IMG/VR virus record: IMGVR_UViG_3300021400_001324
Coordinates: 13,830 to 77,829 of that record
DNA: 64,000 bases
Source of the DNA: a virus
Lineage: Duplodnaviria; Caudoviricetes
Strand: one strand, 5' to 3'
Shown one piece after another: positions 296 to 48,592 of this stretch. Under the pieces are notes generated by a model that saw only the letters and a list, made by a program, of their open reading frames with translations, was not told the DNA's origin and searched no databases. A program made the translations under genes and the position numbers. Positions within the stretch are counted from its first letter, which is position 1. Each line of letters opens with the position of its first letter.

Positions 296-599
296 CTTTG
301 TTATAATCTAAGTTTTTAAAATACTTAATAACTGGCTTAAATACAGTGTCCCAACTTACTAAACTAGCAATAAAACTATATAATATCACATTTGAGTACT
401 ATCCATTATAACATATTATTCCACCTAAAAGCAATCCGCATATCACAGCTATTATACGTTTTACTGCTGTTGAGACACCTTTATTTGGGCCGTTAAGCTA
501 ATCTATAGTTTTTATAACTAGGTATGTTAATATGTTAACAGTTAACATATAACCGAAGTCAAAACTACCAAGAAGTAAGTCAATTATTTTTTCCATCAT
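282..599 (-). CDS. Small membrane protein (holin-like candidate), 105 aa, one TAG
   Basis: MMEKIIDLLLGSFDFGYMLTVNILTYLVIKTID*LNG...IAVICGLLLGGIIC...; 2-3 hydrophobic segments; ATGA overlap with the portal stop. Confidence 0.6.
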
Positions 600-2791
600 G
601 TAAATCTAACTGTATCGTTATAAGGATTACCGTCATAAAGCTGATTAAGTTCAATTTTAACTTTCTATTTATCAATTTCAGTTTGTCCTTCTTTATATGT
701 TCTATCAGTCTAAGCTTGATACCATCTAATTTCTTTATCAGTTTCAAGTTTAGCCTATTCTAGTTGTAACTTCTATTCGTTAAGTTGCTCTAGTTTTTGA
801 GACATCTACTAGTTCTACTATTGAAGTTGCTACATCTATTGTTGAGCCTATTCAAGTTGTTGTTGAAGTTGATTAATCTAGTCTATTTCAGCTTTCTTTT
901 TAGCCCATCCTTTTTTCATCATTTGTTTTAATTCAGTCATACTACGACAAGAAATAGCTTCAGCAGCCATATCTGGTTCTAGCATATTAGCCTATATCAT
1001 CTGTATAACTGTCTATCTCAACTATTCTAAATCTTTAAGAATTTGAGTTGAAGATATAATATGTATATCGTAATCTGTAACTGTAAAATATTCTGGAAGA
1101 ATTGTAAATACTTTCTATAAATGATCTCCAAGAATAATAGAACCAGTTAAGCCATTTTTCCACACAATTTTAGCCATATCAACACAATCAATCAGTATAT
1201 CAGTAACTAAAGTATCCATTTGTTGATAAAACGGTTTTGTAATCGTAAATGAATTTTTAGCTCCGGCTTCTATATTACTTACAGCATCACGCTACGTAAT
1301 TCCATTTAATCTTTCTCTAAATACACCTGTAATTGATGTTACTTGATTTTCAATACGTTCAAGAACTATTTCAAATGCTTGAATGGCTTGAACTTTTGTA
1401 GCATCATCAAATCCAGACATAAATGTATTGTTATTAAATCCTCTACCTTCTTGTGAAGAATCAATGAGAGCTGTACCACCTTTTTTATATGCTAACCATT
1501 TCTAGATACGTTCTGTCATATCGGAACCTAAAAATGCAGGAAGCATTGAAACATCGAGCCAATCTCCAATTGTACCACTATTAGCAAGAAGATTATCACG
1601 TAAGAAAATAGTTACATCATAACGATCTTGTAAAGTTGTACATTGTAAAACGAGACTTGTTGGTAAATTATCACGGTTCATCATAAATATACCACCTACT
1701 GATAACTTACAATGTCTTGGAGCATCTTGTGTTCTTACTACGTTTTGTGATAATCCAGTGGGAATATATATAGAATTACCTATACGTACACCCTCATATC
1801 GATTCTGGATATATTTTCCGTCTTGTTTATCTACATCAATCCATTCGACTTCAAATACAGGAAGCAATTTGTACATATAAGTTTCGTATCCATCAATTGG
1901 AAACCCAGGTACTACTCGTTTACCATTATCTAAATCTCCTTCCATTGGAGCATGAAGTAATGAATTATTATGGGTAGTAACGTACATAAAATTTCCATCT
2001 TCATAATGATTATGCATATCATTAAGTTCAGATATCGCATCACGAGTCATTCTATCACCATACTCTGCAAGAATTTGTTCTCTAGTCATCCATTTACGAA
2101 TAACTACTCGATAACTATCTTTAACGTATGGAGAATCTGGGTTTCTGTCTACAAATGTATTTAAGGGATTAAGACATTCAATAACTAAATTAGTACCTTC
2201 TGGTGAAGGTTTTGTACGATAAAAAGCACATCCAGCTATTAACAAGTCTTGGAGTAATATTCTTTTCTTATTTGCAAGATCGGTTACTCTAGATTGAGAT
2301 ACATAATCTATAACATTTTGTGCTGCTATTTCATACTCACTTATAAAATTGTTATCAATGTCTTCGATAAGTTTATTTATTTGCTAATCAATAGCTGGAT
2401 CTTTTAAATCTTTTCCATTTACAAAATCAAGAATTTGTTTATTTAAATCCTATTTATATAAATTAAAAAGTTGTCGTTTTATCTCAAGTAGTTTATCTCT
2501 ATTTATGTTAGTTAGAGTCTATTCATCTTTACAAGAAACTTTAGCAATTGTAGGTACGTCCAAATATTCACCAAGTAACGCATCTACATGTTTTTTAATC
2601 AGTGGTGTAAATTCAACTTGAGTTGGATTACCTATACCAAAGTTTTCTTCAAGATACCTAAACTATTCAGAATCTCGCCTACCATTATAGTAATTGTAAG
2701 CTTTCTATAACTTAAATTTATGATGGACGAGTTCATTAATAGCTTTGTCTACTTGTTCTATTACATATTCTTTACCCCTCGCAGCAGCCAC
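596..2791 (-). CDS. Portal protein (crAss-like), about 731 aa, TAG-recoded
   Basis: Reading through TAG gives L*KAYNYYNGRRDSE*FRYLEENFGIGNPTQVEFTPLIKKHVDALLGEY and GIT*RDAVSN, as I recall for crAss portals; contains track ORF 1502..2245; GTG start inferred; TGA stop. Confidence 0.85.
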
Positions 2792-18475: not shown

Positions 18476-19075
18476 TTAATTGCCTTCCTCTGTTTTAATT
18501 GGTATTACTTCATCTAAAACAAATTTCTCTGTTTTTAAATCGTATTTAAAACAGTATGCTTTCATTGCTTCAAATGGCATTTCAATAACATTGCAACTAA
18601 CGCCTTCATCGTTATTATAAAAAGTAATAGCCATACTATTACAAGGTTGTAGAGCATAGAATATAACCCAAGGATACCATCCCAAAGACGAAGCAATGTT
18701 GGTTTGATAATTCTCAATGTCTTCAGCAAAATCCATATCTTTTGCTCTCGGATATATTTTTTTACAAAAATCATAAACATTACCATTATCACAAGACGAT
18801 ATCCTTAGAACAACATTAGCAAAACCCCAAAACTATACGTCAAAATTTTTGGTTTGTAAGTCTGAACTATTATAATAAATTATACCCCTCTTTATCTCTT
18901 CTTTTTTATTCTCATAATCCAAGAATTGAAGATTAATTACTTGTGGGTTATCTTTAGTTGCGGCATACCAATTTGTATTTTCAGGACAATCTTCTATTAC
19001 TGTAACTGTTGGCTTGTTATGTGAATCTGAATTATTCTTGTTAACTGAATTAATTAAATTATAATCAAGTTTCAT
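18476..19075 (-). CDS. Hypothetical protein (MKLDYNLIN), one TAG
   Basis: Track ORFs 18833..19075 and 18476..18736 are in frame and joined by TAG. Confidence 0.7.
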
Positions 19076-19821
19076 TCGTAATGTGTATAATATGGAAATT
19101 CTGGTTGTATTATCTAATATTCATTTTCAGGATTAAACACTAAAGGTAAAAACGGCTAGTTTTTAGAATATCCTAAATTTGTGAGATCTTCTGATTCTAT
19201 ATTGTTGTTTGCATAATAAGGTATGAACCAACAATGTTTATCACCCTCTATACGATGAAGTATCATTGGAAACATTTCCTCGTGGATTAAACATTCTTTA
19301 ATATGCTATTTAAAATAGTTAATAAATTCTTCCGATTCATAACTATCAAAATCAGGATGTTGGTATTCGGTATGTTCTGGAGTAAGTAATACTGGATCAT
19401 TCACAAATAAACGTATACCTCCTACGTCTGGATCTTCAATTGCACTTACTATAATCTTTCCTATGTACTCGTCTCCAAAATCAAGATATATTGTATAAGA
19501 GTGTGCTTCCGAATTTAATTCAATGTGGTTAATGGGTATTATTAGTTGCAAACCAAAACCATCTTCAAAAAAAACAAATCCAAGCGGATAATCGTTTACA
19601 TTATAAGATTTGTTACACTCTGAGAGAACACGTTCTATCGTATCGTTAATCCCGAACGTGAACTCTTTAGCATAAGGATATGCCACAAAACTTCTAACTT
19701 TAGTTGGAGTTGCAATAGGACGCCCTTCTAAATCTGAAAAATACTCGTCTAAAATAGTAGCCGCTTCTTCCTTTTTATTAGAACTAGTAATCGTATTAAT
19801 TAAACTATAATCAAGTTTCAT
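19072..19821 (-). CDS. Hypothetical protein (MKLDYSLIN), 3 TAG
   Basis: Readthrough reaches a TGA that overlaps the next ATG. Confidence 0.7.
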
Positions 19822-20005
19822 TGTATATTATTTTCTAATTTTTAGATGTCATATCTTCTAAATGCTTTTTCTTAGGAGTTAATAAAATTCCATCTTCCTA
19901 GGCATCAGATTCGACTATACAGTCTATAATCTTTAACATTGTATCAAGTTGGTACCTCGGAAACTCCTGATGAAGCTTCTTCAGTGTTGCTATTTTGTCT
20001 AACAT
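19811..20005 (-). CDS. Small hypothetical protein, 2 TAG
   Basis: MLDKIATLKKLHQEFPRYQLDTMLKIIDCIVES. Confidence 0.55.
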
Positions 20006-20186
20006 TTTCATTCAATTTATTAGTTAACTCTTTTATCTAAGAATTTAAAGTATCTATTTGCTATAAAGCGTTATTATATTGATTTTGTAAGTAATCAATT
20101 TTCTCCTACGCCTAATTTAAAGAAAGCTCTAGTTGACTTTCAACATCAGCTAGAGCCATTCGCACTTTACGTAATTCTATTATCAT
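19944..20186 (-). CDS. Small coiled-coil protein, TAG-recoded
   Basis: MIIELRKVRMALADVESQLELSLN*A*EKIDYL. Confidence 0.5.
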
Positions 20187-20309
20187 AAATTCATTTTCGC
20201 TTGAAATCTTTCTTTATATTCTAATGGATCTGTTATTTTAGAATTATAAACATGTCCAGGTTTAATGCTGTCATAAGGGTGTATAACAGGCATTACAGAA
20301 AGCTTTTCA

Positions 20310-20537
20310 TTAATCTGTTTCAATTGCTCCAATATTTCTTGCAGTATATTCATTTTCATCCATCATTGTTATACAAGTATTTAAATCTTCATTTGCTATT
20401 TTTCTTTGTACCAATTCTATCGTTTCATTAATCCGAGTTTGGAATAACTCTAGAATCATTAACATATCTTCCCAAGTTAAATCAGAAATATCTGATAAAA
20501 CGTCATATTTCATACAAGTTATAAGCAGATCTTTCAT
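20310..20537 (-). CDS. Hypothetical protein
   Basis: 75-aa ORF on the operon strand. Confidence 0.55.
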   Translation of the reverse strand: MKDLLITCMKYDVLSDISDLTWEDMLMILELFQTRINETIELVQRKIANEDLNTCITMMDENEYTARNIGAIETD

Positions 20538-20663
20538 CCTCTTATCGATATTTCATTAAGTGTATCAAGCCACGATAGGACTTCTTGTTCATCTTGTAAT
20601 TCATTTTCTTCAATTATATCCCACACTTTGTTTGCAAGATATATAACAGTATCCATCAAGATT

Positions 20664-20969
20664 TTAGTCTACTTGTTCATAACCATCCATTTTCAGATTA
20701 TTATAAATTGATGTTATACTCCACCCAGTTTGTCTATTTATATAATGGTGAAGTACAACTTTATCTTCATCATAATTAACCTCAGAAGCTTTTCCATTCA
20801 TTTCTTTACATAAATCTTGTAAAGTTGCATTAGGCATTTCTTTTATTATCTTGAAATCTCCAGAAGTCTTCTTTGCTTTCTTCTGGAGATTCATACAGTA
20901 ATTCATTTTACCATTTAATTCATAAATTCCAGGACAAGCTGGAATATCATTAACATTATTCATAAACAT
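20664..20969 (-). CDS. Hypothetical protein immediately downstream of the suppressor tRNA
   Basis: Start trimmed to ATG 20969 because the longer track ORF overlaps the tRNA 3' exon. Confidence 0.6.
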   Translation of the reverse strand: MFMNNVNDIPACPGIYELNGKMNYCMNLQKKAKKTSGDFKIIKEMPNATLQDLCKEMNGKASEVNYDEDKVVLHHYINRQTGWSITSIYNNLKMDGYEQVD

Positions 20970-20980
20970 ATAAAAATTAG

Positions 20981-21275
20981 TCCTCCTCCTAGGATTCGAA
21001 CCTAGTCTGTCGGTTTTCGTACTACACTTGCTTTTATACAAGCCAACTAACGTGAGTTGTTGTAGTCTGGACTATTTCTTTATCCACATGGGATATTCCC
21101 TATATAGTCTCTACGCCATTTATCACAATCGTGAATTTAGTAAGCCGTCGCCAAAACTAAAGTCGCCTTTAGTGAGGTTTCCGTTTGTTAGGGGAATTAT
21201 TCGATATACATTGCTGTATAAAGCTCCATTTTACCTTTAAGAGACCGTCTTGCTAACCAATTACAACAGAGGAGA
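20981..21275 (-). tRNA. Amber-suppressor tRNA(CUA) interrupted by a group I intron between anticodon positions 35 and 36
   Basis: Acceptor TCTCCTC/GAGGAGG plus A73; D stem TTGT/GCAA; T arm CTAGG-TTCGAAT-CCTAG; removing 21018-21239 gives the 7-nt loop CT-CTA-AA. Confidence 0.85.
21018..21239 (-). ncRNA. Group I intron (222 nt, no ORF) in the suppressor tRNA anticodon
   Basis: 5' exon ends in U and intron ends in G; IGS GGAG pairs with CTCT with G.U at the splice site; P3 ATTCCC/GGGAAT; P7 GAGACTA/TAGTCC; P8 and P9 stems present; P4 pairing poor. Confidence 0.82.
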
Positions 21276-21318
21276 GAATAAACCTCTTATTTAACCTTAA
21301 GAGGTTCTTTATTATCTA

Positions 21319-21675
21319 TTACTCACCAATTGTCATTCTTAACAATTTCATAAGTGATCTTTCATCTAGTTCATTTAATACTTTCATTATTTCTTCAAGC
21401 TTCTTCATATCGGGACGCTGAGAAAGATAATCCTCCAACGTATGAATAGCTTCTTCAAGAAGTTCTCTATCTTCTAGAATAGCATCATTACTCATAGTTG
21501 AAATTTTTGCAAATACAGGATGTTCTTTATATAAATCAAGTATTTCATCATCTTCTACCAAGTCTAAAAGACCTGATGCGTACTCATACATTGCAACTGC
21601 AATATTATGATTGTACTTTTTCTGTAGTTCTATTATTTCATTTCTCATATAACAAATATAATACATTTTTTGCAA
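21319..21675 (-). CDS. Hypothetical helical protein upstream of the suppressor tRNA
   Basis: 118-aa ORF with TAA stop and no TAG. Confidence 0.65.
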   Translation of the reverse strand: MQKMYYICYMRNEIIELQKKYNHNIAVAMYEYASGLLDLVEDDEILDLYKEHPVFAKISTMSNDAILEDRELLEEAIHTLEDYLSQRPDMKKLEEIMKVLNELDERSLMKLLRMTIGE

Positions 21676-21736
21676 TAAAACAACAAATATTGCAAATTTA
21701 ACGTTTGTTAATAGTTCTTTTTAATAAACTCGTAGA

Positions 21737-35603: not shown

Positions 35604-35677
35604 GGTCTTGTGGCGCAATTGGTCAGCGCGTCTGTCTTATACACAGTAGGTTGTAGGTTCAAGTCCTACCAAGACCA
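35604..35677 (+). tRNA. tRNA-Ile(UAU)
   Basis: GGTCTTG/CAAGACC acceptor, GCGC D stem, loop CT-TAT-AC, GTAGG-TTCAAGT-CCTAC. Confidence 0.88.
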
Positions 35678-35706
35678 CTTTTTATCAACCTTTAAACTTC
35701 AAAATT

Positions 35707-35988
35707 ATGCAGGAAATAACTCTAGTAACACCGACTTTTGGAGCAATCAATGTTGTACCAAAATTTCTTGATTACGATCCGAATACATTAATTATTGGGG
35801 ATAAGGTAATGAACCTTGAACCGATATTACCGGATGATATCAATTTATCAGAATTAGATGACTTTCATATCATTATCTGGGATGGCATGCATGCAAAAAT
35901 CGAAGTAGTGATCAATCCAAATACTTATGTAGGCGAATTTGATGTTATGCCAGGAAATTATCAACGCCAGTTTGTTAATCCAATTTAA
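35707..35988 (+). CDS. Hypothetical protein
   Basis: 93-aa ORF followed by a hairpin terminator. Confidence 0.7.
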   Translation: MQEITLVTPTFGAINVVPKFLDYDPNTLIIGDKVMNLEPILPDDINLSELDDFHIIIWDGMHAKIEVVINPNTYVGEFDVMPGNYQRQFVNPI

Positions 35989-36000
35989 CTTTAACACCTT

Positions 36001-36028
36001 GCCCAGTGGTGTGAACTGGGCATTTTTT
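36001..36028 (+). terminator. Hairpin plus T tract
   Basis: GCCCAGT-GGTGTGA-ACTGGGC-ATTTTTT. Confidence 0.65.
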
Positions 36029-36054
36029 CTATTAACCTTTAACAACAACAGAAA

Positions 36055-36375
36055 ATGATTATTTCAGAAAACTTAAATACTCACAAGATTATAATATCTT
36101 GTGAAGAAGATCTGCTGACTTTACATTACTTTGTAGAATTAGCAGATAAATATCTGTCCGCAATGAGTTTCCCAAATCCAACTTCTTTATACAAAGAAGA
36201 AGACATCGTAATGGGGGAAAAAGCTTATAAATTCATACCAAAAATCGTTTCAGTAAATGGACTCGCAGGATACGTTGTCCTTGAAGATGGTACAATTCGT
36301 TGTACTAACAAAGCATCTTCTTGGATAGCACAATTTGATGAATGCTTTGAATCAGAAATGTATTTCATCCCTTAA
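36055..36375 (+). CDS. Hypothetical protein
   Basis: 106-aa ORF. Confidence 0.7.
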   Translation: MIISENLNTHKIIISCEEDLLTLHYFVELADKYLSAMSFPNPTSLYKEEDIVMGEKAYKFIPKIVSVNGLAGYVVLEDGTIRCTNKASSWIAQFDECFESEMYFIP

Positions 36376-36679
36376 ACAGCTTGCCGAGTGCTGTGAACTC
36401 GGCATTTATGTATTTTTTATTTAGTTAAAGGTTGGCCTCAACCTTGGCGGGAATCAAGATTCATTATATAGTGAATCTCCTTGCCTAAATTAAGTGGCAT
36501 AACCTTGTCGGTTGAATTTTGGAATAAAACCGTCTTACTCGTCACCGTGATCCCTATTGACGTACGAGGACATTAAAAGCTAGGGTGACCCGATATAAGT
36601 ATTAGAGTGTCGGAATTGTTAGTGGTAGACCTCACTAAAAGTGACTTAAACAACAATATCATTTGATATTGGAGGGAGA

Positions 36680-37385
36680 AAAGTATCTAGTTTCCTGGGT
36701 TTCTAAATGGAAAGGATACTCCCTTGTTTAAGTTGCCGTACGCGTTTGTCAGTAGCGCATTTTAAATAACTGTCATTTAAAAATTATGTGTGTAGTAAGT
36801 CGAAACCCAGGTAGTAGAAGGTACTAAGAAGATTCCTAATCCTATTAACTTGATAGGTAGTTATGCTGTGTATGATCGCTCAATAACATCGGCGGTCTAC
36901 TTCGGAACTTTGAGTTTGTTGCAGCATCTCAGAGTTCAGCATAATTAGTCTGCGATCGCTGCAACGATCGTAAGACGAAGCGTTCCCCACTAGGTGGAGA
37001 GAAGTCTCTGCATCGCGACTAGTGGGATACTGCGATCCCGAGAGCAGTATAAAGAAGACGGATGTCCGAGTGATCCACGCGAGGACGTAATGTACGGTGG
37101 ACAAAGGATGCAGCGCCAAGGGCATCTACAGTTCCGTGATTGGGCTAGTCGGAACATTTTTAAACATTCTTCACGAGTTGGAGAATGTCTCTAATGCAGC
37201 CATTCTTCGGAATGAGAGTCACAAGCCTCTATAAATTGCAGAGTGGAGAAAGAGAGATAAAACAGGACTAAGCTACGAAGGGTTCGACACCCACTAGTGA
37301 ATATCGTTATGCAGATATCTATAGCACTGTCTGTATAAAATAGCTATTAGGATATCCCTGGATTCGGAGAAATCTCTCTCTTTTA
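36680..37385 (+). ncRNA. Candidate large structured ncRNA
   Basis: No credible ORF; GC-rich; stems CCTGGGTTTC/GAAACCCAGG, CCCACTAG/CTAGTGGG, GCGATCG/CGATCGT, AGAGAGAT/ATCTCTCT. Confidence 0.45.
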
Positions 37386-38177
37386 AACAAATTTAATAGT
37401 GCTGAAAGACCGAGGCAAGTGTAAGATGGAATAGGGCTTACGAATGGTTCAAACAGAAGCAAGAGAACAGTCAGCACGGTTTAGGTAGAAGGTACCTGTA
37501 TGTTCCTAACCCTGTTAGTATAAGTTGTATTAGCAGGTATAAGTTCTGAATATCTGACAGGACGGATTTGTGCAGAAATAGTCAAGAACGCACCATAAAC
37601 ATTACTTGACTAACCAACCTAAAGAAAATTAATTAGGTCGTAGTATTCTACGTTTGGTTGGTTTTGGGAGTTTATAAACCCATGTAAAACCTATTTTTTT
37701 ATTTAATGGTGCTGAAAGAGTAAGACAAGAGAACAGTCAGCACGGTTTAAAAAAACTCAATAACTTCCCAAGTCGTTGAGGGCACCAGTTTCTTATCTAA
37801 TTAAAACGTGATAGGTGGATTAAGTAGGCAACTACGGTTGTGCGAACCATTATCAGACAGTCTTTAGATAAGTTTTAGGTGTAAAACGCGTATATGAAAC
37901 ATTCATTAGTACTAGAGCCTTCCCTAATAAGGAAGAGCGTGTGAGAGATGAATGTGGATAAGTCGAGTAGCTTAAGTCTCACCTCGATCATCTTTTTTAG
38001 TTTTGCTTGTTTTCTACAAATAAGCTACCAGGAGGCCTCGTCAAAGGCAACAAACTGGAAAGACTGCATGCGAAGCAAGAAAGGTTGACTGCCTATTATT
38101 GAAGCCCCTAAATTGCAGCACGATACAGGGTTTGTAAGGTTACCGTATCATTTTTGTAAACTTTAAAAAGTCAATAT

Positions 38178-38372
38178 ATGAGAAAACTTTTATTCGTAAG
38201 CAGCATGAGCTGCTTAATGGCAAGCCAGATTGTATTCTGGTTTGTTGCTGTCCTAAATATGTTAGTAAGACAGCCTTACGATACACCGCTTTGCATAAGT
38301 GGTGTATTTGCGATTCTAACTGTTGTATTAGGATTAATAAGTCAAATAAATAATCCTAGTATAAAAAAATAA
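38178..38372 (+). CDS. Small two-TM membrane protein
   Basis: Two hydrophobic helices. Confidence 0.65.
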   Translation: MRKLLFVSSMSCLMASQIVFWFVAVLNMLVRQPYDTPLCISGVFAILTVVLGLISQINNPSIKK

Positions 38373-38392
38373 TACCGAAGATAGAATTTTTC

Positions 38393-38641
38393 ATGACAAA
38401 AAAGAAATGGCGTAAAAAAGAATTCAAGAGATTGGTATCTCTTGGATGGCCACGATATGTAGCTTCAAGAATAGTTAGAGGTAAAACTTTAGCTTCCCTA
38501 GGTTACAAAAACTTGGATGATCTTACATTAGATCGTCAAACGTACTACAATAGTGAATTTAACACTATTGTCTATATTTTTCAAGATGAAACTTGGAAAC
38601 AAGTAGAGGCTACAAAACCTTTACATTATTATTACGATTAA
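38393..38641 (+). CDS. Hypothetical basic protein
   Basis: 82-aa ORF. Confidence 0.6.
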   Translation: MTKKKWRKKEFKRLVSLGWPRYVASRIVRGKTLASLGYKNLDDLTLDRQTYYNSEFNTIVYIFQDETWKQVEATKPLHYYYD

Positions 38642-38658
38642 CTTTTAAATTAAACAAT

Positions 38659-39102
38659 ATGACACCGAACATTAAGAAAACTGAAGCAGGAGTATCTGTA
38701 CAAATTGTGCTCCCGTTCCGTGAGGGGAATAGTGTTCCCAAGCTGAGAGAGGCACCAAAATATCAGTGCCTCAAAGACAATAAGGAAGCACTGATCAGAG
38801 CTGTTAAGGCACGCATGCAAGCATGTTACGATAGCCTTGTAGAAGGAATGGATAACATCGTTTATAATGATGGTATGTCTATTCACTACAAAGTTGATGG
38901 AAGTTATTCTTACTTTAATCTTCCAAGCTGGGAGGTTATGGAGAAGCTTCTCAAAGCACTTGAGGAAGATGCTTACTATAACTGGGACATTCCAATGTAT
39001 GAGCAACTTCTCAAATCAGTTGTTCTGCATTTTGATGCTACTTACAAGAACTATGATAAGATGGTTTGTTATTTAATTAACCATCTTGCGGTTCAAGGTT
39101 GA
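38659..39102 (+). CDS. Hypothetical protein
   Basis: Start trimmed to MTPNIKK. Confidence 0.7.
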   Translation: MTPNIKKTEAGVSVQIVLPFREGNSVPKLREAPKYQCLKDNKEALIRAVKARMQACYDSLVEGMDNIVYNDGMSIHYKVDGSYSYFNLPSWEVMEKLLKALEEDAYYNWDIPMYEQLLKSVVLHFDATYKNYDKMVCYLINHLAVQG

Positions 39103-39425
39103 AATCCCTGGCTCGTTAAGAGCCAAAATCTCTGACAAGTCTAGACCTTCACGTGGGTCAGAGGTCGCATTAGCGCATACTAGACATTGCTCTTTTATCT
39201 TTTCTATGCTGCGAAGAATAGTAACAGCCGCTTAAGTAAAAGGTTGAATTGCCAGATATAAATAACTGGAACCCATAAATAGAGAGATTCGTTCAACTTC
39301 AGAATTGAATGTTATGCCTATAGCGAATTAGAATTTTTCATTTTGAAATAATTTTAGATTAATCATTGAAAGAATCTCTCTATTTTTCTTACCTTAAATA
39401 AATCCTGGGTAAGCAGGTAAATACT

Positions 39426-39695
39426 ATGCGTAAGTATAGCCGTATTAACAAAAATCGCAAGTCGGGTATTAACCGCTCCAACCTCCGTATGAAAAAGGAA
39501 CGCAAAGTTCGTGCTTTTTCATTTGCGGGTGTCAAATTAGACATCCGACTGAACAACCGTGGTGGCATCGTAGATGTTCAGCCACGTGTTGGCGATCTTT
39601 TCAATAAGATCGCAGGTCGTCAATGGGGGTTGTCAGATGTTAAGAACATCCTTCGTGATGAGTGTATCGAATTTGCTAACTCAAATAAAGAGTAA
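39426..39695 (+). CDS. Basic hypothetical protein
   Basis: Arg/Lys-rich N-terminus. Confidence 0.7.
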   Translation: MRKYSRINKNRKSGINRSNLRMKKERKVRAFSFAGVKLDIRLNNRGGIVDVQPRVGDLFNKIAGRQWGLSDVKNILRDECIEFANSNKE

Positions 39696-39700
39696 CAACT

Positions 39701-40063
39701 ATGGCACGAGTTGATTACAGCAAGTTTGATTACAAACAGGCCTGTGCTAAATTCAATATGGTGCGTATGCACTATATTGGAAAGGCAGTACAGAAGGCAG
39801 AAATCAAACAAGCCATTCTTACTTCAGGTTTAGGATGGCATTCTATCCTATTAACGATCTTAATTAATCACAAATGTGTGATTAAAGAAGGTCGTGGTCG
39901 TGCTTGTAAGTTGTTCTTCACAAAAGAACCACTCCACTTTACACAGCTCTACGATGCTCACAAAGAGTATCTGAGAGTTAGAAGAGAAATGAAGAAAGAA
40001 GCTAAACCTGTTCAAAAGGAAACTAAGAAGATTTCCTATTGGACATCAACCACGACTTGGTGA
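39701..40063 (+). CDS. Hypothetical protein (possible winged-helix DNA binder)
   Basis: 120-aa basic ORF. Confidence 0.65.
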   Translation: MARVDYSKFDYKQACAKFNMVRMHYIGKAVQKAEIKQAILTSGLGWHSILLTILINHKCVIKEGRGRACKLFFTKEPLHFTQLYDAHKEYLRVRREMKKEAKPVQKETKKISYWTSTTTW

Positions 40064-40227
40064 TGAACAAGGACCTTTTAAAGGTAATTGGAGGGCTTGC
40101 TTTTATAGTAAGCCTTCCAGTTACTATCATTCTAATTGCAGCTCCTAATAAAATTTGGGAGGCGATTATTCCATCTCTAATAATACTAGCGAGTTCTTTT
40201 TACGTTTTCTTAATAAAAAAAGATTAA
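40063..40227 (+). CDS. Small two-TM membrane protein
   Basis: MNKDLLKVIGGLAFIVSLPV... Confidence 0.6.
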   Translation: MNKDLLKVIGGLAFIVSLPVTIILIAAPNKIWEAIIPSLIILASSFYVFLIKKD

Positions 40228-40229
40228 TT

Positions 40230-40505
40230 ATGAATTATTATATTATGATTTTGTCATCAGACGATAAGTATGATGAAATGGCAGATGAGATACTGAAACT
40301 GTTTGGTACATTGCACATTTTTTTGCGCAATGATATCAAGACAATCGAGATCAAGAATCACGAACTAGATCAGTCTATCTATGAAAAGCTGACTGAGATC
40401 ACAAGGGATCTTGACGCAACAGCGTTCATGTTTAAAGCTGATCCTAACCAGCTTGAAGAAATGTGTACTTCAGAAGTTGAAACAATTCCGACTCTCAGTT
40501 GGTGA
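40230..40505 (+). CDS. Hypothetical protein
   Basis: Start trimmed to MNYYIM. Confidence 0.65.
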   Translation: MNYYIMILSSDDKYDEMADEILKLFGTLHIFLRNDIKTIEIKNHELDQSIYEKLTEITRDLDATAFMFKADPNQLEEMCTSEVETIPTLSW

Positions 40506-40647
40506 TGGAAACGTTCATCTTCTGGCTTTGTGAACAGCCGTCTTGGAGTATTCCTCTGATTCTTATCGGAGGAATGCTTCTTTCTGCTTGTATTATTACA
40601 AGTATCGCTGACTTAATAGAATTTTATAGATTTAAAAACTTTAAGAA

Positions 40648-40908
40648 ATGAAGTACCATATCAAATTCAATGGTGGTAATGATGAAATGCTCATCATTAG
40701 TGATGAAGCATTTTACGGTTTCATCCGTGTAGCCGTTCAGCACAATCGTGATGTTACAGATTTCCACGTAAAAGCGTATCGTAATGAAATTCCATTGTAT
40801 AAGACTGAATACAACGGACAAGTTCACTACTACACGTTTGAAGACTTTATGAAGTTCTTCGCGTATGAAGGAGGACAGTATCCTGACTTAAAAATGAAAA
40901 TTGTATGA
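40648..40908 (+). CDS. Hypothetical protein
   Basis: 86-aa ORF. Confidence 0.7.
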   Translation: MKYHIKFNGGNDEMLIISDEAFYGFIRVAVQHNRDVTDFHVKAYRNEIPLYKTEYNGQVHYYTFEDFMKFFAYEGGQYPDLKMKIV

Positions 40909-41303
40909 ACTGTAAAGTTTGCGGATCAGAAATAGACCACGAAACATACAGTTGTGGTCCACAAATGATAGAACGTCAACTCTGCTTCACTTGTAATTTC
41001 TGGCGAGATCAGCTTGAAGCTGATAAGTTGCGTGGTGATTACAAGTGGGCAGTGATTGACGGTGGTCATTATGTCATTGCTTCCGAAAACGAAAAAACCA
41101 GATTCAGAGGTTTTGATGGACAAAAATTTATCATTATCTTTGAAGATGGAACTATTGTTAGAACTACTAATCTTTGGTTTCAGGGACATATCCCTGAAGA
41201 ATGGAAATCTCAATTTCCTGACAATGCTGTTTTTGCTGACAATCGAAAATGGCAAAAGATTGGAGATTGTGAGTATCTTGCTCCGTCTATCTCGACGACA
41301 TAG
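40905..41303 (+). CDS. Zn-ribbon-containing hypothetical protein
   Basis: CKVCG...LCFTCNFW, TTNLWFQGHIP. Confidence 0.75.
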   Translation: MNCKVCGSEIDHETYSCGPQMIERQLCFTCNFWRDQLEADKLRGDYKWAVIDGGHYVIASENEKTRFRGFDGQKFIIIFEDGTIVRTTNLWFQGHIPEEWKSQFPDNAVFADNRKWQKIGDCEYLAPSISTT

Positions 41304-41587
41304 AGAGGCTTTCGTAGGGCTGAAGTTACCATCCGTACAATGGTTAAACCTTACCTAGAAGCACAATAGGTATTGTGTGATGAGAGGGCACCTTCTTATC
41401 TGAAAGAAAATGGTGACGAGGCAGCTGACAATTTGCAATACGCAGCTGTGACATAGATCTGTTATAAGCCTCCAATCGTGAGCAGATTGTGCTACTTAAC
41501 AATCTATAATGAGTGTAACTTGCAAAACTCTGTAAAAACTTCCGCAAGTAGGTTGCCGACATCCCTAAGAGATAATTGTCGGTACAA

Positions 41588-41658
41588 TGAGATTTGGTGT
41601 AATGGCAGCACACAACATTTTGGATGTTGTAGTATAGGTTCGAATCCTGTAATCTCAA
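41588..41658 (+). tRNA. tRNA-Gln(UUG)
   Basis: TGAGATT/AATCTCA, CAACA-TT-TTG-GA-TGTTG, TTCGAAT loop. Confidence 0.9.
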
Positions 41659-41738
41659 CTCGTTTGTCATGATGTTTAAAGGTTAACGGCAGCTGTGCCT
41701 GCTGAACTCTGGGAAGATAGTAAGCTAAAACAGCACTC

Positions 41739-41811
41739 CGAGAATGTAGTGTAATCCGGTAACACGCCACATTTGGGATGTGGAAATGCCGTTCAAATCG
41801 GACATTCTCGA
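41739..41811 (+). tRNA. tRNA-Pro(UGG)
   Basis: CGAGAATG/CATTCTCG, CCACA-TT-TGG-GA-TGTGG, TTCAAAT loop. Confidence 0.88.
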
Positions 41812-41941
41812 CTTTATAGTCGATAAAACAGATTTGTTTGTGTGTCAGACCCATGTCTGATTGTTTTTGGGTTTTAATTACCGAAAGTATGTGAATATAA
41901 GTAGGTAATTTTTATTTGTTTAATCATTAAAACTCTATAAT

Positions 41942-42259
41942 ATGAATATGCAATTTATTCAAGAACGCATTAAAGAAATGACTGTTCCAGATCTTAAACT
42001 GGACATCACCTACGCAATCATTTATCCAACAATCGATAAGATCAAATTCTGTAATCGTTCTGAAATGATTGCAGAACTAGGCATTCTTAAAGATTGTGAT
42101 ATTGATCATATGGAAATTATTCTGGTAAATAAGCATATGTCAATAGAATCGGCATTACATATTGCCAGACACTTTGATTTGGAGTATGAAGTAATGTATG
42201 ACATTACTGCTAATGATATGACTCCTTATCAAGCACTTCAAGAGTGGGATATTATTTAA
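41942..42259 (+). CDS. Hypothetical protein
   Basis: 105-aa ORF. Confidence 0.7.
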   Translation: MNMQFIQERIKEMTVPDLKLDITYAIIYPTIDKIKFCNRSEMIAELGILKDCDIDHMEIILVNKHMSIESALHIARHFDLEYEVMYDITANDMTPYQALQEWDII

Positions 42260-42329
42260 TCCCACTCTTTTTTTAAATGAGAGATAATTTTATTTTGTAA
42301 TTTACATTTAAACTTATAACTTTGTAGAT

Positions 42330-43193
42330 ATGGTTAGTAAAAAATATTTCGCAGAGAAAGGTCTTACTAGTACATCAGCCAACTATTTAGCAAATGTAGG
42401 GCAAGAAGCCCTCACTGGGTACAAAACCACTTTAGACAATCTGAGATGGTACAACGAGACTATGATTCTTCTTTCATCTGGAAAGGAAGTTCCTATGGTA
42501 AATAGCAACACGCCAATTCTAGAAGAGATTAATGTCATTATCAATGAGATGAGCAAGATTAATGCCTTCTGCGCTTGGATACGTGAAGCCATTAAAGCTA
42601 AGGAAGTTCTTGAAGGAGAATTTCCTGATTTCGATGAGTGGAAATCAGATAAAGAAACAGTATCTTCACCTGCTCGTCCTCAACGTTTCACTGAAGCTGA
42701 TGTTGTAGCCGAGTTTGATGTTAAGAAGCTCAATGAATATCTCACTCTTGAAGCTTATGCAGCAACTCTCGGTAAATTGATTCATCAAGGTGGTTCAATT
42801 AGCACTGCACGCAAGCAATTGCATAACGTGCTAGAGACTCCCAACTCTGTTGAGAAGATGGATAGCGATGTCGTGATCACACGCTATACTCCGATTCTTA
42901 AAGCAGAGGAAGTTGATGATTGGTACATGCAACTTCAAAATAAATACCGTGAGGTAGAAAGACAACTTAATCAGATTAAATATCAGATTAAGGAAGAAGT
43001 TGCAGCCCGTAATCGCGTTGCTCAAACTCAATACAACGCCGAACTCAGAAAGTATAACGCAGAACAAGAGCAATTGTTTGCTGAATATCATACTGAGTCA
43101 GAGGCGTATCGTAATGAGATCTCTAAGTTGAAGATTATTGTTCCTCGAGAACTTGAGGAAACATTTAACTACTTACAATCTTTAGGTAAGTAA
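42330..43193 (+). CDS. Long coiled-coil protein (GLTSTSANYLAN family) followed by a structured RNA
   Basis: 287 aa; heptad-rich helices around a central beta-like insert. Confidence 0.85.
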   Translation: MVSKKYFAEKGLTSTSANYLANVGQEALTGYKTTLDNLRWYNETMILLSSGKEVPMVNSNTPILEEINVIINEMSKINAFCAWIREAIKAKEVLEGEFPDFDEWKSDKETVSSPARPQRFTEADVVAEFDVKKLNEYLTLEAYAATLGKLIHQGGSISTARKQLHNVLETPNSVEKMDSDVVITRYTPILKAEEVDDWYMQLQNKYREVERQLNQIKYQIKEEVAARNRVAQTQYNAELRKYNAEQEQLFAEYHTESEAYRNEISKLKIIVPRELEETFNYLQSLGK

Positions 43194-43196
43194 ACT

Positions 43197-43460
43197 GTAG
43201 GGATTTATAAACACTTACCTAAAGTAAATAGGTTCAAAGACTTGATTCTCATTGGAATCTAACTTTGATTTACAAGGATAAGAAAGAAGCGTCAATTAAA
43301 TAAATTATGAACATTCAAAGTTTAATTAACTTTGTTCCTTCATTGGGAAGGACTGGCGTTTCTATCGAAATTAAAGAACTCTCTGTCTTCGTCTTCGTTG
43401 ATAGAAACGGTCTTTGTCTAGGACTTAGACTTTGTTGTAGTTGTTTCTTTCTTATCTTTG
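43197..43460 (+). ncRNA. Candidate multi-branched ncRNA linked to the 42330 gene
   Basis: 18-bp stem CAAGGATAAGAAAGAAGC/GTTTCTTTCTTATCTTTG; CGTTTCTATCGA/TTGATAGAAACG; two hairpins containing CATTGG. Confidence 0.65.
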
Positions 43461-43471
43461 ACTATTTTTAA

Positions 43472-43545
43472 GCTTCTATGGTGAAACGGTTATCACGCTT
43501 GACTGTTAATCAAGTATTCTTGGTTCAAATCCAGGTGGAAGCGCA
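43472..43545 (+). tRNA. tRNA-Asn(GUU)
   Basis: GCTTCTA/TGGAAGC, CTTGA-CT-GTT-AA-TCAAG. Confidence 0.9.
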
Positions 43546-43742
43546 AAATTTATTTGCTGGTTTTATCACCAATACAAATCAGCCACGGAAGCATTCCTGA
43601 GAGATCCCTGATGTAATTCAAATCTGAGTAAGGTCCGATGGTTTGGAACTATTCCGGATAATGTTCCATTCAGGAGAGATAACTGTTGAGATCACAACAT
43701 GAATCAATGAGCAGTACACTCCATATCAAATTGCTCATATAT

Positions 43743-43813
43743 GGCCCTGTAGTTTAGAAGCAGAACGCAAGATTTTCATTCTTGAGAACACGGAGCGTTA
43801 CCGTGCTGGGCTA
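43743..43813 (+). tRNA. tRNA-Glu(UUC) with a non-canonical T loop
   Basis: GGCCCTG/CTGGGCT, CAAGA-TT-TTC-AT-TCTTG, CACGG-AGCGTTA-CCGTG. Confidence 0.75.
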
Positions 43814-43887
43814 CTTTAATACAAAACTTCACCAACTATTCAGCGATTTGGAAGTTTATGCAAGTTGAGGTTTTTGTATTTAATATA

Positions 43888-43961
43888 TGCGGGGTGGAGC
43901 AGTGGTCAGCTCGTCTGTCTCATAAGCAGAAGGTCGTCAGTTCGAATCTGACCCCACGCAA
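43888..43961 (+). tRNA. tRNA-Met(CAU) on an initiator-like scaffold
   Basis: TGCGGGGTGGAGCAG start, TCTGT-CT-CAT-AA-GCAGA; lacks the three G-C anticodon-stem pairs; bulged A in the acceptor stem. Confidence 0.85.
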
Positions 43962-43972
43962 CTTTTAAACAT

Positions 43973-44095
43973 GGGATTCTACACGAATTATTCTTTTAAG
44001 TAGATGCATATGCTTACTAGAGTATTGGGTGGTTTTAGATTTTGAAACTGCAGATATTCAAAATCTATTAGGAGGTTCGAGTCCTCTGTTTCCCT
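43973..44095 (+). ncRNA. tRNA-Cys(GCA)-like RNA with an enlarged D arm and about 12-bp anticodon stem
   Basis: GGGATTC/GTTTCCC plus U73; loop CT-GCA-GA; T arm GGAGG-TTCGAGT-CCTCT. Confidence 0.6.
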
Positions 44096-44211
44096 CAAAT
44101 TGGAATTTATTTAATAGAAATGTAATTCTTGGTAGTGTAAGTAGGGTTCGATTCCTGTAAATAGTAACTTACTATATTTTTATTAAATATCTAGCTAGAA
44201 TTCCAATTCTA

Positions 44212-44937
44212 GATCTCGTAGCTCAGCTGGTTTTTAGAGCACCACACTTTGATTTAAGAGTGCTATGGCGAGAAATCCCATAGTAGAATCACCCAAATTC
44301 GGTGAAAATCCTTTTCTGAATAAATGGCACATGATGCAAACTGGTTATACCTTAAGGAGTGCCAGCACTAACCAATAATGTGTAAGGACAATACCGAGCG
44401 AAAATAAGTTTAAATTTGTATGAATACATGTACGTAATACAAATGACCATTGCAACAGATAAGCACTAACAACAATGGGGGTAGTGCAACTTATAATCGT
44501 GTAGAGACTGAACGGGTGATACCTAAGTTGAAATTGATATCCATATTAAGCATTGATAGTGATGCTGCCTCGAAAGGGTGAAACAAAGTGCAAATCTTTG
44601 AATATGAATCTTGCAAGAATTTCAATATGGTAAAGAGACAGTGAGGTTTAACCTCCACTAACTAATGTTAGACTATAACAAATGCGATAGTATAGAGCTG
44701 TCACGGCTGTTCGGCTGATACAAACCGAATAATAAATGTGTAAAAGTTGATTTGTTTCAAACTATCGGTGATATCTTATTTGATTATAGTAATATTAGTT
44801 AGTGCCAGACCACAACAAATGACCCTACCCAATGGGTGAATGTCAGGGTGGGAAGGAACATTCTCAATCATTTGGCTATGGTAACATAGAGTGGTAGGTT
44901 AATGTGGGAGTCCTGGGTTCGAATCCCAGCGGGATCA
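44212..44937 (+). tRNA. tRNA-Lys(UUU) interrupted after U34 by a 649-nt group I intron
   Basis: GATCTCG/CGGGATC acceptor; CCACA-CT-T|TT-AA-TGTGG after removing 44250-44898; CTGGG-TTCGAAT-CCCAG. Confidence 0.9.
44250..44898 (+). ncRNA. Group I intron without an ORF; P7 interrupted by a nested insert
   Basis: IGS TTAA-GAGTG pairs both exons with G.U at the splice site; P3 ATCACCC/GGGTGAT; P4 TTCGGT/ACCGAG; R GTAGAGACTG; S AAAGAGACAGT|CC; terminal G. Confidence 0.87.
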
Positions 44938-45093
44938 CTAAGCAGATTATCTGTATCGGGCACCGACCCTAAGGTACATACGGATACAGATGGTGAGTAA
45001 TAGAGTTCGAGGATTGTTAGTGAAATAGACTTTGAAGCTGCAATACGTGCTGAACCATGAGCGGTCGGAACGTCTCTATTAAATCTGTTTTTC

Positions 45094-45175
45094 GCGGTTG
45101 TGCTGTAACTGGTAGCCAGGTCTGGTTTAGGCCCAGATGTCGAAAGGCGTGGGGGTTCGAGTCCCTTCAACCGCA
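45094..45175 (+). tRNA. tRNA-Leu(UAG)
   Basis: GCGGTTG/CAACCGC, TCTGG-TT-TAG-GC-CCAGA, long variable arm. Confidence 0.92.
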
Positions 45176-45203
45176 CATTTAATAACAATTAATTTATTTA
45201 ATT

Positions 45204-45647
45204 ATGCACAAAGTAGTTTATAATGCTTGTTATGGAGGATTTGGTTTAAGTGCAAAAGCAATAGCTTACATTCTCCGACAGAATAAACCAGATGTTAAGC
45301 TATTCTTTTATAAGCAAGATTTTGAAAACTGGGATTGGCACTATACAAAATGTAATGAAGCTGAAGCTACTCACGTTTTTCTAAAAGACTTTGGAGACGA
45401 GTTTTATTATGCGCAAGTGAATCAAGTACAATTCAACGACAATGTTGTTTATGATTCACAAGTCTATAAAAATCGTCACGATCCTCGCTTAATTAAGGCA
45501 GTTGAAGAACTCGGAGAAGAAGTTAATAGTGATTATTCAGAACTTCGTATTGCTGAAATTGAATCTGATGTTTACATTATCCGAGAATATGACGGTTTGG
45601 AAAAAGTAGTAACTCCAGAGGATATAAATTGGATTAAAATTGAATAA
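45204..45647 (+). CDS. Conserved phage hypothetical protein
   Basis: KVVYNACYGGFGLS...RHDPRLIKAVEELG. Confidence 0.8.
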   Translation: MHKVVYNACYGGFGLSAKAIAYILRQNKPDVKLFFYKQDFENWDWHYTKCNEAEATHVFLKDFGDEFYYAQVNQVQFNDNVVYDSQVYKNRHDPRLIKAVEELGEEVNSDYSELRIAEIESDVYIIREYDGLEKVVTPEDINWIKIE

Positions 45648-45708
45648 CTATAAATTACTTCATAATCTAAAGTAGACCTAAGCATGTCTTAAAACTGCTT
45701 AAATTACT

Positions 45709-46275
45709 ATGTTAGTATATGCACATTCTATAAACGATGTTAATAACATCTTAAAGAAAGATAGTAATCCGTTAAGAAAATGGATTAACGAAATATTTTT
45801 GGATAAGTCTAGTAAAAATTTAAGAAGAAAGAATCAAGATATGATTTTAACTAAAGTTTTTACAAAGACTATTCATAATAATACTTATTATGCTACTGTA
45901 TATGGTTGTAAGAAAGGATTACTAATAAACATATTTCTACTTGTATCTTTAGGTAATAAACAAAAAATTTATTTAATAAGCAGTACTGGAAGTTATGTTT
46001 TATTTACTTTTGAACAACATTTTATTAACCGATTTTTAGAAAGAACTCGAAATACTCATTATAATCTGTTAATTGCTTTAACAAGAGAATTTAACGGGTT
46101 TCCTATATTTGCTCACTCTTTAATTTTTTTAAAAGATGGAAGATGGATGTATAAATCTAGAAACGGTTATGCTATTATGGATAAAAATATTTTTATAACT
46201 TTTATTACAGATTTGAGTAATAAACAACAAGAATTATATGATAGTTGTGCACAAAAAGATTTAAGTAGATTCTAA
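45709..46275 (+). CDS. AT-rich hypothetical protein flanked by short direct repeats
   Basis: 188-aa ORF; AAACTGCTTAAATT on both sides. Confidence 0.7.
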   Translation: MLVYAHSINDVNNILKKDSNPLRKWINEIFLDKSSKNLRRKNQDMILTKVFTKTIHNNTYYATVYGCKKGLLINIFLLVSLGNKQKIYLISSTGSYVLFTFEQHFINRFLERTRNTHYNLLIALTREFNGFPIFAHSLIFLKDGRWMYKSRNGYAIMDKNIFITFITDLSNKQQELYDSCAQKDLSRF

Positions 46276-46299
46276 ACTGCTTAAATTTTATTGAAGTAT

Positions 46300-46384
46300 G
46301 GGCCGATGGTGAAATTTGGTAGACACGTTGGATTTAAGCTCCAATTCCTAGTTTGGAGTGAGGGTTCGAGTCCCTCTCGGCCTA
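46300..46384 (+). tRNA. tRNA-Leu(UAA)
   Basis: GGGCCGA/TCGGCCT, TTGGA-TT-TAA-GC-TCCAA, long variable arm. Confidence 0.92.
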
Positions 46385-46712
46385 CTATTTCTAATAAAAA
46401 TATAACACTGAGGCGGACTTTAAACGCAAAACTCCACTAAATTGGTGGGTAGGAATGTGCGAAGTATTAGAGTTGGGAAGGGTCGCTCCCTTGGTAAGTG
46501 TTGTATTTTTTAAAATAATCCTTTTCGGCGTTTACGGTGTAACAGAGCGCTGCGCTTGGTCTATGAGTACCTTGAAAACCGTTAACTGTCGTGTTAGGTA
46601 GAGGAAGCCTAACATTTAAATTGAGGTGGCAATAAAGAGCTGTTTAGCACTAAAGTAAATTTTCATTCATGCTCAGTATCCACCTATACTGAGCTTTTTA
46701 AAATTAAGGATT

Positions 46713-47135
46713 ATGACATCTGAAGAACTATTTGAGAAAGTGTCAGAACTTACGGATAAGACTTTCAAATATAAACCTATCAGTGAAAAAGAAGCTATTG
46801 GTAAAACAATAGAGAAAATCTATACACTTTATAATGGTTGGAATGATAATTATAAAGTAATCACTTTTACTGATAAAACCGCTTTATATTATGAATGTGA
46901 TAAGGATCCAGAAATACATCCTAATTTAGTAAAATCATATGGTGACATAGAAAGTGGTGTTAATGTTTATCTAACTAGTTTTGGAAGTTCACTTTATGAT
47001 GAAGGTCTTTTAAATGATACTACTGAACTTTTAAAAGCTGAGGAACAATATAGATTAGCATTTCTTGAAGAAAATAGACAAGAACAAATTAGAAAACTTA
47101 AAGAAATATTAAAACAACTAGAAAATAACTCCTAA
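46713..47135 (+). CDS. Hypothetical protein (similar architecture to 48122)
   Basis: GKTIEKI...ITFTDKTALY; C-terminal coiled coil. Confidence 0.75.
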   Translation: MTSEELFEKVSELTDKTFKYKPISEKEAIGKTIEKIYTLYNGWNDNYKVITFTDKTALYYECDKDPEIHPNLVKSYGDIESGVNVYLTSFGSSLYDEGLLNDTTELLKAEEQYRLAFLEENRQEQIRKLKEILKQLENNS

Positions 47136-47146
47136 TTACAAATATT

Positions 47147-47590
47147 ATGAATAATATAATTATTTGGCCAACAGAACAAAATGAATTTTTTAAGAATACT
47201 GTAATTGGCAAAACTGTAATCGATATTAAAACGGATAATTATGAATATATTTCGTTTTTATTTAACGATGGGTCTGCAATGCGAATGTATCATTCGCAAA
47301 ATTGTTGTGAATCAGTAATTATTGATGATATTTGTGGAGATCTAGAAGATTTGATTGGAACTCCAATTCTTACTGCAGAATTGCGCACAAATTTTAACGA
47401 TAATCCAAAAGATGAATACGATAATTCGTTTACTTGGTCATTCTATATATTTAGAACTGTAAAAGGAACTGTGGATATTCGCTGGTATGGTACAAGTAAT
47501 GGATATTATTCAGAAGATGTTCATATAGAATATCATCCATCTGATATAATTTACGATAATTGGCAAAAAGACTTTTTCAATAAATATTAA
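47147..47590 (+). CDS. Conserved phage hypothetical protein
   Basis: HSQNCCESV.IDDICGDL...TWSFY...IRWYGTSNGYYSE. Confidence 0.8.
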   Translation: MNNIIIWPTEQNEFFKNTVIGKTVIDIKTDNYEYISFLFNDGSAMRMYHSQNCCESVIIDDICGDLEDLIGTPILTAELRTNFNDNPKDEYDNSFTWSFYIFRTVKGTVDIRWYGTSNGYYSEDVHIEYHPSDIIYDNWQKDFFNKY

Positions 47591-47595
47591 ATACT

Positions 47596-47928
47596 ATGGA
47601 ATATAAACTTTATTTAGTAGAAATTGTAGACTGTCTTGGTCAATGGATACCTAAATACATAGCATTTAGTTTAGCTACGGCTAGGTGTGGAATAAGAAAA
47701 CTTAATGAAAAGTATGGAGGTAGTACAATGTGTTCTATTTATATATATGAATTTGAAGTAGATCCGTTGTTAGAAATTGAACATTGGAGTTACCGGATGA
47801 ACATTCCTTACTATAAAAAGAAACTTATAGAGGTATACAGTCAACGTAATGGTAAATATGAGTTAAATACAGGATTTGAAATTAAAAAACTTAAAAAACA
47901 ATTAGAACAATTAGAAAATGAGTCCTAA
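47596..47928 (+). CDS. Hypothetical protein
   Basis: 110-aa ORF. Confidence 0.65.
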   Translation: MEYKLYLVEIVDCLGQWIPKYIAFSLATARCGIRKLNEKYGGSTMCSIYIYEFEVDPLLEIEHWSYRMNIPYYKKKLIEVYSQRNGKYELNTGFEIKKLKKQLEQLENES

Positions 47929-48118: not shown

Positions 48119-48121
48119 ATT

Positions 48122-48505: not shown

Positions 48506-48519
48506 TTACTTTACAGGTT

Positions 48520-48592
48520 GCCCCAGTAGCTCAGGAGATAGAGCAATTGCCTTCTAAGCAATCGGTCGTGCGTGCAAGTCGTACCTGGGGTA
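48520..48592 (+). tRNA. tRNA-Arg(UCU) with an atypical T loop
   Basis: GCCCCAG/CTGGGGT, ATTGC-CT-TCT-AA-GCAAT, GTGCG-TGCAAGT-CGTAC. Confidence 0.85.

Follow-up and report, generated by a model that had tools for sequence, protein, structure and literature searches.

The window analysed here is a stretch of 64,000 nucleotides (positions 13,830 to 77,829) from the 77.8-kb Caudoviricetes record IMGVR_UViG_3300021400_001324, and its minus strand carries a tRNA gene in two halves that flank a 222-nt insert (Table 1). Explicit splicing of the minus-strand exons as CUCU|AAA, together with ARAGORN, yields a 73-nt cloverleaf with anticodon CUA and places the insertion between U35 and A36, with C34 and U35 as the last exon nucleotides in the CUCU part of the loop, confirming the rejoining of the halves put forward in a preliminary description of this DNA. 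To map the splice sites the 3' end was set at the terminal G that follows GUAGUAC and every 5' end was tried; a cut after U (..CUCU|) is the sole one that gives a 7-nt loop with anticodon CUA, the adjacent cuts producing loops of 6 or 8 nt. The cloverleaf so obtained has a single A.A mismatch at 27:43, a variable region of 4 nt and a canonical T arm (CUAGG UUCGAAU CCUAG), and its acceptor stem, with GAGGAGG as the 3' strand, starts with U1.G72, C2-G71 and U3-A70 and is followed by A73.

Table 1. Features of the split tRNA(CUA) gene and its intron in the window (RNA letters; helices as modelled)
Feature	Coordinates	Strand	Details
tRNA(CUA) precursor	20981..21275	-	295 nt; 73 nt once spliced; CCA not encoded; discriminator A73 at 20981
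Exon 1	21240..21275	-	acceptor 5' strand UCUCCUC, D arm, anticodon stem 5' strand, CUCU
Group I intron (putative)	21018..21239	-	222 nt, ORF-less; 5' UAAAGG, 3' GUAGUACG; terminal G = 21018
Exon 2	20981..21017	-	A36 A37 A38, anticodon stem 3' strand, variable region, T arm, GAGGAGG, A73
P1	21224..21243	-	exon CUCU (21243-21240) with guide GGAG (21227-21224); U.G wobble at 5' splice site
P2 hairpin	21205..21220	-	UAUACA/UGUAUA, GCAA loop; 6 of 6 pairs change on both sides
P3	5' strand 21192..21197, 3' strand 21100-21095	-	AUUCCC with GGGAAU; 5 of 6 pairs change on both sides
P4-P5 domain	21146..21183	-	P4 CG/CG = 21183-21182 with 21147-21146
P6 hairpin	21123..21134	-	UCAC/GUGA; 2 pairs change on both sides
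Catalytic core	21070..21109	-	P7 5' GACUAU 21109-21104; P8 21094-21082; J8/7; P7 3' AUAGUC 21075-21070
P9	21021..21066	-	ACUAC/GUAGU around P9a (CAACU/AGUUG) and P9b (CUUGU/GCAAG)
Terminator-like hairpin	21281..21306	-	directly upstream of the tRNA, between it and ORF 21319-21675; within the 326-bp segment replaced in the closest relative

The split gene escapes both default ARAGORN and the Rfam tRNA model, as had been anticipated for standard tRNA scanners. The ten tRNAs that they do list in the window all lie on the plus strand, from 35604 to 51119; the nearest of these, at 35604, is 14.3 kb away, in agreement with the 14 kb first given. One further point on the plus strand is a tRNA-Glu(UUC) at 43743-43813, which scores 45.8 bits with the Rfam tRNA model and is absent from the ARAGORN output. 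With introns allowed, ARAGORN recovers the split gene with the border 1-2 nt off, reporting 'ACG' and drawing a 9-nt loop. Such ARAGORN intron borders ('ACG', 'CGA') were discarded because they violate the rule of a U before the intron and a G at its end, the one drawn for the window also implying that 9-nt loop. An intact CUA tRNA elsewhere, the finding that the preliminary description had named as contrary to its reading, does not occur in the 77.8-kb record; since CheckV puts this fragment at 44% complete, a second CUA tRNA could lie elsewhere in the genome.

A TAG-recoded late arm and its amino acid

The minus-strand ORFs from 596 to 32650 require TAG read-through and the plus-strand arm is nearly TAG-free. 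The split gene lies in the recoded arm, and both small ORFs that flank it are TAG-free, as described earlier. The earlier statement that TAG breaks every late gene was too strong, since at least six other minus-arm ORFs of at least 150 aa also lack TAG. The P22-like portal gene (596-2791, minus strand) holds 23 TAGs; when it is aligned with 115 full-length homologues, Q outnumbers every other residue at 16 of the 23 TAG columns and makes up 53% of the cells, against a background of 6.7%; TAG is, on the evidence of this alignment, read as Gln. The contigs that yielded these full-length homologues measure 150-190 kb, and this crAss-like gut phage is probably a member of the large-genome, intron-rich (Zeta-like) crAss group.

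The Gln identity set of E. coli comprises a weak 1:72 pair, U35, G73, G2-C71, G3-C70 and G10. The split tRNA shares U35 and the weak 1:72 pair (U.G, with U1 invariant in 11 of 11 homologues) and differs from the set at C2-G71, U3-A70, A73 and U10, its acceptor being non-canonical for Gln just as the first reading of the sequence had it; the phage's own tRNA-Gln(UUG) likewise carries A73. Because most E. coli-type Gln determinants are absent, we can only infer the charged amino acid, which would most likely be Gln.

Neither of the small flanking ORFs receives a function from PHROGs or Pfam. The one directly downstream of the tRNA (20664-20969, minus strand; 101 aa, TAG-free) contains 'PGIYELNGK', faintly like a GIY-YIG motif, a reading of 'GIYELNGK' that we rejected on finding no GIY-YIG hit in Pfam or PHROGs; homologues of this ORF, or at least ORFs with a similar start, come after the split tRNA in three other contigs (L025, L026 and L043). 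On the upstream side, a Bacteroidetes-type promoter-like motif (TTTG ... TAnnTTTG; 21687-21653, minus strand) precedes the small ORF 21319-21675, and the window has no excess of motifs of this type (6 found against 4.4 expected).

Predicted fold and group I membership of the intron

The features first ascribed to the 222-nt insert, namely its U and terminal-G borders, an IGS, and P3, P7, P8 and P9, are all present, their helices having been located in the window copy (Table 1), where P3 and P7 form a pseudoknot and P5 consists of a CC/GG base and ACUAAAG/CUUUAGU with a GCGA loop. To assess this fold we aligned 11 homologous CUA precursors, for which RNAalifold recovers the tRNA stems, P1, P2, P3, P5, P8 and P9/9a/9b, with the anticodon stem closing across the intron in the consensus. 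In a hand model consisting of the RNAalifold helices plus P6 and the P3/P7 pseudoknot, 96% of the cells are paired; sliding the partners lowers this to 40-44%. Changes on both sides are seen at 46 of the model's pairs. For the predicted fold, covariation supports P1-P3, P5, P6, P8 and P9; P7 (GACUAU/AUAGUC) is invariant among the homologues, so that covariation is uninformative on it. At the borders, the U.G pair of P1 at the 5' splice site is found in 11 of 11 homologues, and the terminal G (GUAGUACG then AAAA) in 9 of the 11, the other two (L014, L022) having A. Those two CUA-tRNA introns (L014 750-1034 and L022 8891-9173), in which P6 is also wholly absent, may be decaying copies or be spliced at a different 3' site.

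The difficulty of building a clean P4, a caveat of the preliminary description, has its counterpart in the alignment. P4 comprises two Watson-Crick pairs with A-rich strands around them, a C-G pair and a second pair that covaries as GC, AU or CG, in 11 of 11 homologues, whereas the classical bacterial relatives have a P4 of 5-6 bp (CGGGG/CCCG-type helices); an equally short P4 is found in Leu-UAA and Lys-UUU members of the phage subfamily. With P4 this weak, self-splicing may be slow or protein-dependent.

Comparison with group I covariance models, suggested at the outset as a check, gave a divided answer. On Rfam Intron_gpI (RF00028) the window intron scores 14.8 bits (E 0.3) in a relaxed search, below the gathering threshold of 50 bits; a narrower relaxed Rfam search returned no match, and at the gathering threshold the window yields 10 tRNAs and no intron. 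According to Williams 2020 (bioRxiv 10.1101/2020.01.27.920355), none of the Rfam seed sequences for group I introns is bacterial. Given the 14.8 bits of the window copy, its relatives were examined for group I identity, and one CUA-tRNA member of the family (L042) reaches 56 bits on the same model, above the gathering score of 50. Taken together, the borders, the modelled helices and the relatives support the assignment of the split gene as a tRNA(CUA) interrupted within its anticodon by a putative group I intron of IC3-like type.

Relatives of the intron and exchange at the locus

The 295-nt split gene matches the crAss-like phage cr115_1 (BLAST E 2e-29) and Lak-B1 (E 2e-21), and a scan with two core motifs places the intron family in at least 37 viral contigs. 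Every copy whose flanking tRNA can be mapped sits in an anticodon loop with a U preceding it, and the copies mapped to tRNAs end in G, save the two mentioned above. The host tRNAs are CUA (12 distinct phage sequences), Leu-UAA, Arg-UCU, Lys-UUU and Ile-UAU, and several copies, that in the CUA tRNA of L036 among them, contain HNH-type ORFs. The members with intronic ORFs (L012, L020, L033, L036, L040 and L015/L018/L046) measure 590-780 nt; five of the ORFs have HNH-like CxxC...CPNCH motifs, and the Arg-UCU introns hold another ORF. The CUA tRNAs of L036 and L042 have long variable arms and are therefore not Gln-type. Beyond viruses, at least 120 bacterial genomes contain this core motif, and 52 of these have it within tRNA-Leu(UAA) at CUU/AAAA; the tRNA-Leu(UAA) copies are the classical IC3 intron, the 'Leu.3Ug' of Williams 2020. 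In one phage tRNA cluster, a permuted tmRNA (L013 3067-3353, minus strand; Rfam RF04321, 68 bits) adjoins an intron-split tRNA-Leu(UAA).

The closest relative of the phage, a 139.7-kb contig (G001), is 98.5% identical to the window on one side of the gene (21309-21711) and 90.9% on the other (19049-20982), and between these flanks the 326 bp of the window that comprise the hairpin and the split tRNA (20983-21308) are replaced by 95 bp with a different, intron-less tRNA(CUA). That gene is the only CUA tRNA found in the relative, and the intron core has no copy anywhere in its 139.7 kb. Likewise, Lak-B2/4/5/7/8 carry an intron-less tRNA(CUA) (in Lak-B2 at L287 1477-1549) in the slot that the split one occupies in Lak-B1/3/6/9, with flanks 96-99.9% identical. 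At both syntenic sites the intron-less CUA tRNAs are different tRNA sequences and not the split allele minus its intron, so what is seen is cassette exchange, and intron loss or gain is not demonstrated. The search for intron-less alleles proposed in the preliminary description thus succeeded in finding an intron-less CUA tRNA at the same locus but not the same tRNA without its intron: exact-word scans of viral and metagenome contigs for alleles of the window tRNA, with or without intron, gave no match, and of 129 intron-less CUA tRNAs not one exceeds 77% identity to the window's spliced tRNA. Lak-B2/4/5/7/8 near 292 kb, and Lak-C1 at 332.6 kb, show a partial match to the intron that covers the P7-P9 part only and may correspond to the published 'Tyr(GTA)' intron.

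Two complete genomes bear on whether suppression relies on the split gene. In cr115_1 (NC_055898), where TerL contains 7 TAGs and the portal gene 12, standard ARAGORN reports only Leu, Leu, Arg and a tmRNA, and a single CUA tRNA was found, the intron-split one at c30533-30833 (NC_055898.1; L009 2986-3286), which is unannotated in RefSeq. It lies directly upstream of TerL on the same strand, at the border of TAG-free and TAG-bearing genes, TerL being the first TAG-bearing gene after it. In Lak-B1, whose complete genome is TAG-recoded, the split gene lies at about 412 kb (L010 1465-1782), and the 32 tRNAs at the Rfam tRNA hits include no CUA. Since the split gene is the sole CUA tRNA found in both genomes, their late proteins need the intron to be removed, and we infer that it is spliced in vivo in cr115_1 and Lak-B1.

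A probable working suppressor with a tolerated intron, and its known counterparts

The reading that we favour, and consider quite probable, is that of a working TAG-to-Gln suppressor tRNA gene with a tolerated, once-mobile IC3-like group I intron, a passenger and not a timing switch. The precursor would be transcribed from the same strand as the recoded genes; a guanosine would attack after ..CUCU, which the guide GGAG binds in P1 with a U.G wobble, and the terminal G (21018) would then dock in P7 and the exons be ligated. The product would be a 73-nt tRNA with the loop CUCUAAA; once CCA has been added and the tRNA charged, most likely with Gln, it would decode the TAG codons that stand in frame in the late genes. 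The intron itself would be a selfish element, mobile at one time and now tolerated, leaving suppression to hang on a ribozyme step that was not selected as a timer. Its neutrality is presumed here from its distribution: as the intron is optional in near-identical phages, occurs in sense tRNAs and is sometimes accompanied by a homing endonuclease, a tolerated mobile element is the simplest account.

The preliminary description had instead taken splicing for a timing or metabolic checkpoint. On this view splicing that is slow, or that depends on GTP, Mg2+ or a helper from phage or host making up for the weak P4, would hold back Gln-tRNA(CUA) and with it the virion and lysis proteins. Suppression in the record, in cr115_1 and in Lak-B1 does depend on intron removal, the unusually weak P4 of the phage subfamily leaves room for a cofactor, and the cr115_1 gene stands exactly between the TAG-free genes and the first TAG-bearing one; we nevertheless regard such a splicing-gated code switch as unlikely. 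The intron is not conserved at the locus among close relatives, near-identical phages (G001, Lak-B2/4/5/7/8) dispensing with it there in favour of an intron-less CUA tRNA, and the subfamily has the same weak P4 in sense tRNAs (Leu-UAA, Lys-UUU), where no switch is needed. Homing endonuclease ORFs are found in some relatives, the position of the gene in the late, co-oriented arm explains timing more simply, and no sensor, riboswitch-like element or other sign of conditional splicing was seen in the sequence. The more specific proposal that the weak P4 makes ligation slow or RNA-chaperone-dependent, so that Gln-tRNA(CUA) appears late and the ribozyme step helps to time virion and lysis proteins, seems to us doubtful to a similar degree. 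If true, such a splicing-timed supply of suppressor would amount to a ribozyme-dependent change of the genetic code.

A disabled gene appears very improbable; in that case the degenerate P4 would have ended splicing and left the split tRNA as a relic, and TAG would be decoded by a different CUA tRNA, from the unsequenced part of the genome or from the host. The record is only about 44% complete, P4 is weak, and the loss of P6 and of the terminal G in L014 and L022 indicates that decay does occur in the family; the window copy, however, retains all its helices, the terminal G and the U.G pair, and selection on the fold is evident from the compensatory changes in the family. The position of the relative's only CUA tRNA at this same locus, and the failure to find another CUA tRNA in the complete genomes of cr115_1 and Lak-B1, likewise argue against a relic. 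Chance resemblance, with neither a tRNA nor an intron at the locus, is refuted, the sub-threshold Rfam group I score of the window copy and a fold energy z-score of only -1.4 notwithstanding, by the BLAST matches of the split gene to its counterparts in other phages, the covariation of tRNA and intron helices and a core common to classical tRNA introns.

The working suppressor with its tolerated intron can be set beside the suppressor tRNAs of TAG- and TGA-recoded crAss-like and other gut phages, which are well known (PMC7886860; bioRxiv 10.1101/2021.08.26.457843). Like them, the window phage encodes a CUA tRNA and its late genes use TAG as Gln; the suppressor tRNAs of Yutin 2021 and Borges 2021 are uninterrupted, whereas that of the window is split. 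Recoded genomes without a detectable suppressor have also been reported, and a divergent suppressor that escapes detection has been suggested for them (Yutin 2021, PMC7886860; PMC12386605). Intron-split suppressor tRNAs, invisible to default tRNA finders, offer a concrete answer to this puzzle of the missing suppressor, as shown for cr115_1. Our literature searches, which covered sources other than the settings table of Williams 2020, found no paper on a group I intron that splits the anticodon of a phage suppressor, in keeping with the earlier remark that no such description was known for a phage suppressor tRNA.

The Lak megaphages provide a second point of comparison. Their tRNA introns were called 'enigmatic' and mapped by tRNAscan in eukaryote mode in a study that gives no intron class and names no intron-split suppressor (Devoto et al. 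2019, PMC6784885), and Lak-B1/B3/B6/B9 carry the same intron-split gene as the window. Table 1 of that study (PMC6784885) counts 30 tRNAs for Lak-B1/3/6/9 and 31 for Lak-B2/4/5/7/8, numbers that would fit a hidden CUA gene going uncounted in the former. Suppressor tRNA genes behave in these phages as exchangeable cassettes, intron-bearing and intron-less versions swapping in one slot of near-identical genomes, and members of the intron family move between tRNAs of both kinds, sense and suppressor, in phages and bacteria. Where the split version is present, the altered code depends on a ribozyme reaction, which makes such phages a natural setting for the question whether group I splicing can limit or time translation.

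Finally, IC3 group I introns in tRNA anticodon loops are documented for Leu.3Ug, fMet.2Ug, Arg.5Ug and Ile2.5Ug and for 17 further settings in Williams 2020 (bioRxiv 10.1101/2020.01.27.920355). The window intron resembles these bacterial and plastid introns in being small and ORF-less, in its site in the anticodon loop, in its U-1.G wobble and terminal G and in its P1-P9 layout, and its P7/J8-7 core, AGAGACUA ... AUAGUCCAGAC, is the same as in the 52 bacterial tRNA-Leu(UAA) introns. It differs in its insertion at 35/36 (CUCU/AAA, position 4 in the numbering of Williams 2020) and not at 34/35, in a P4 cut to two Watson-Crick pairs, and in its host gene, which is a phage stop-codon suppressor.
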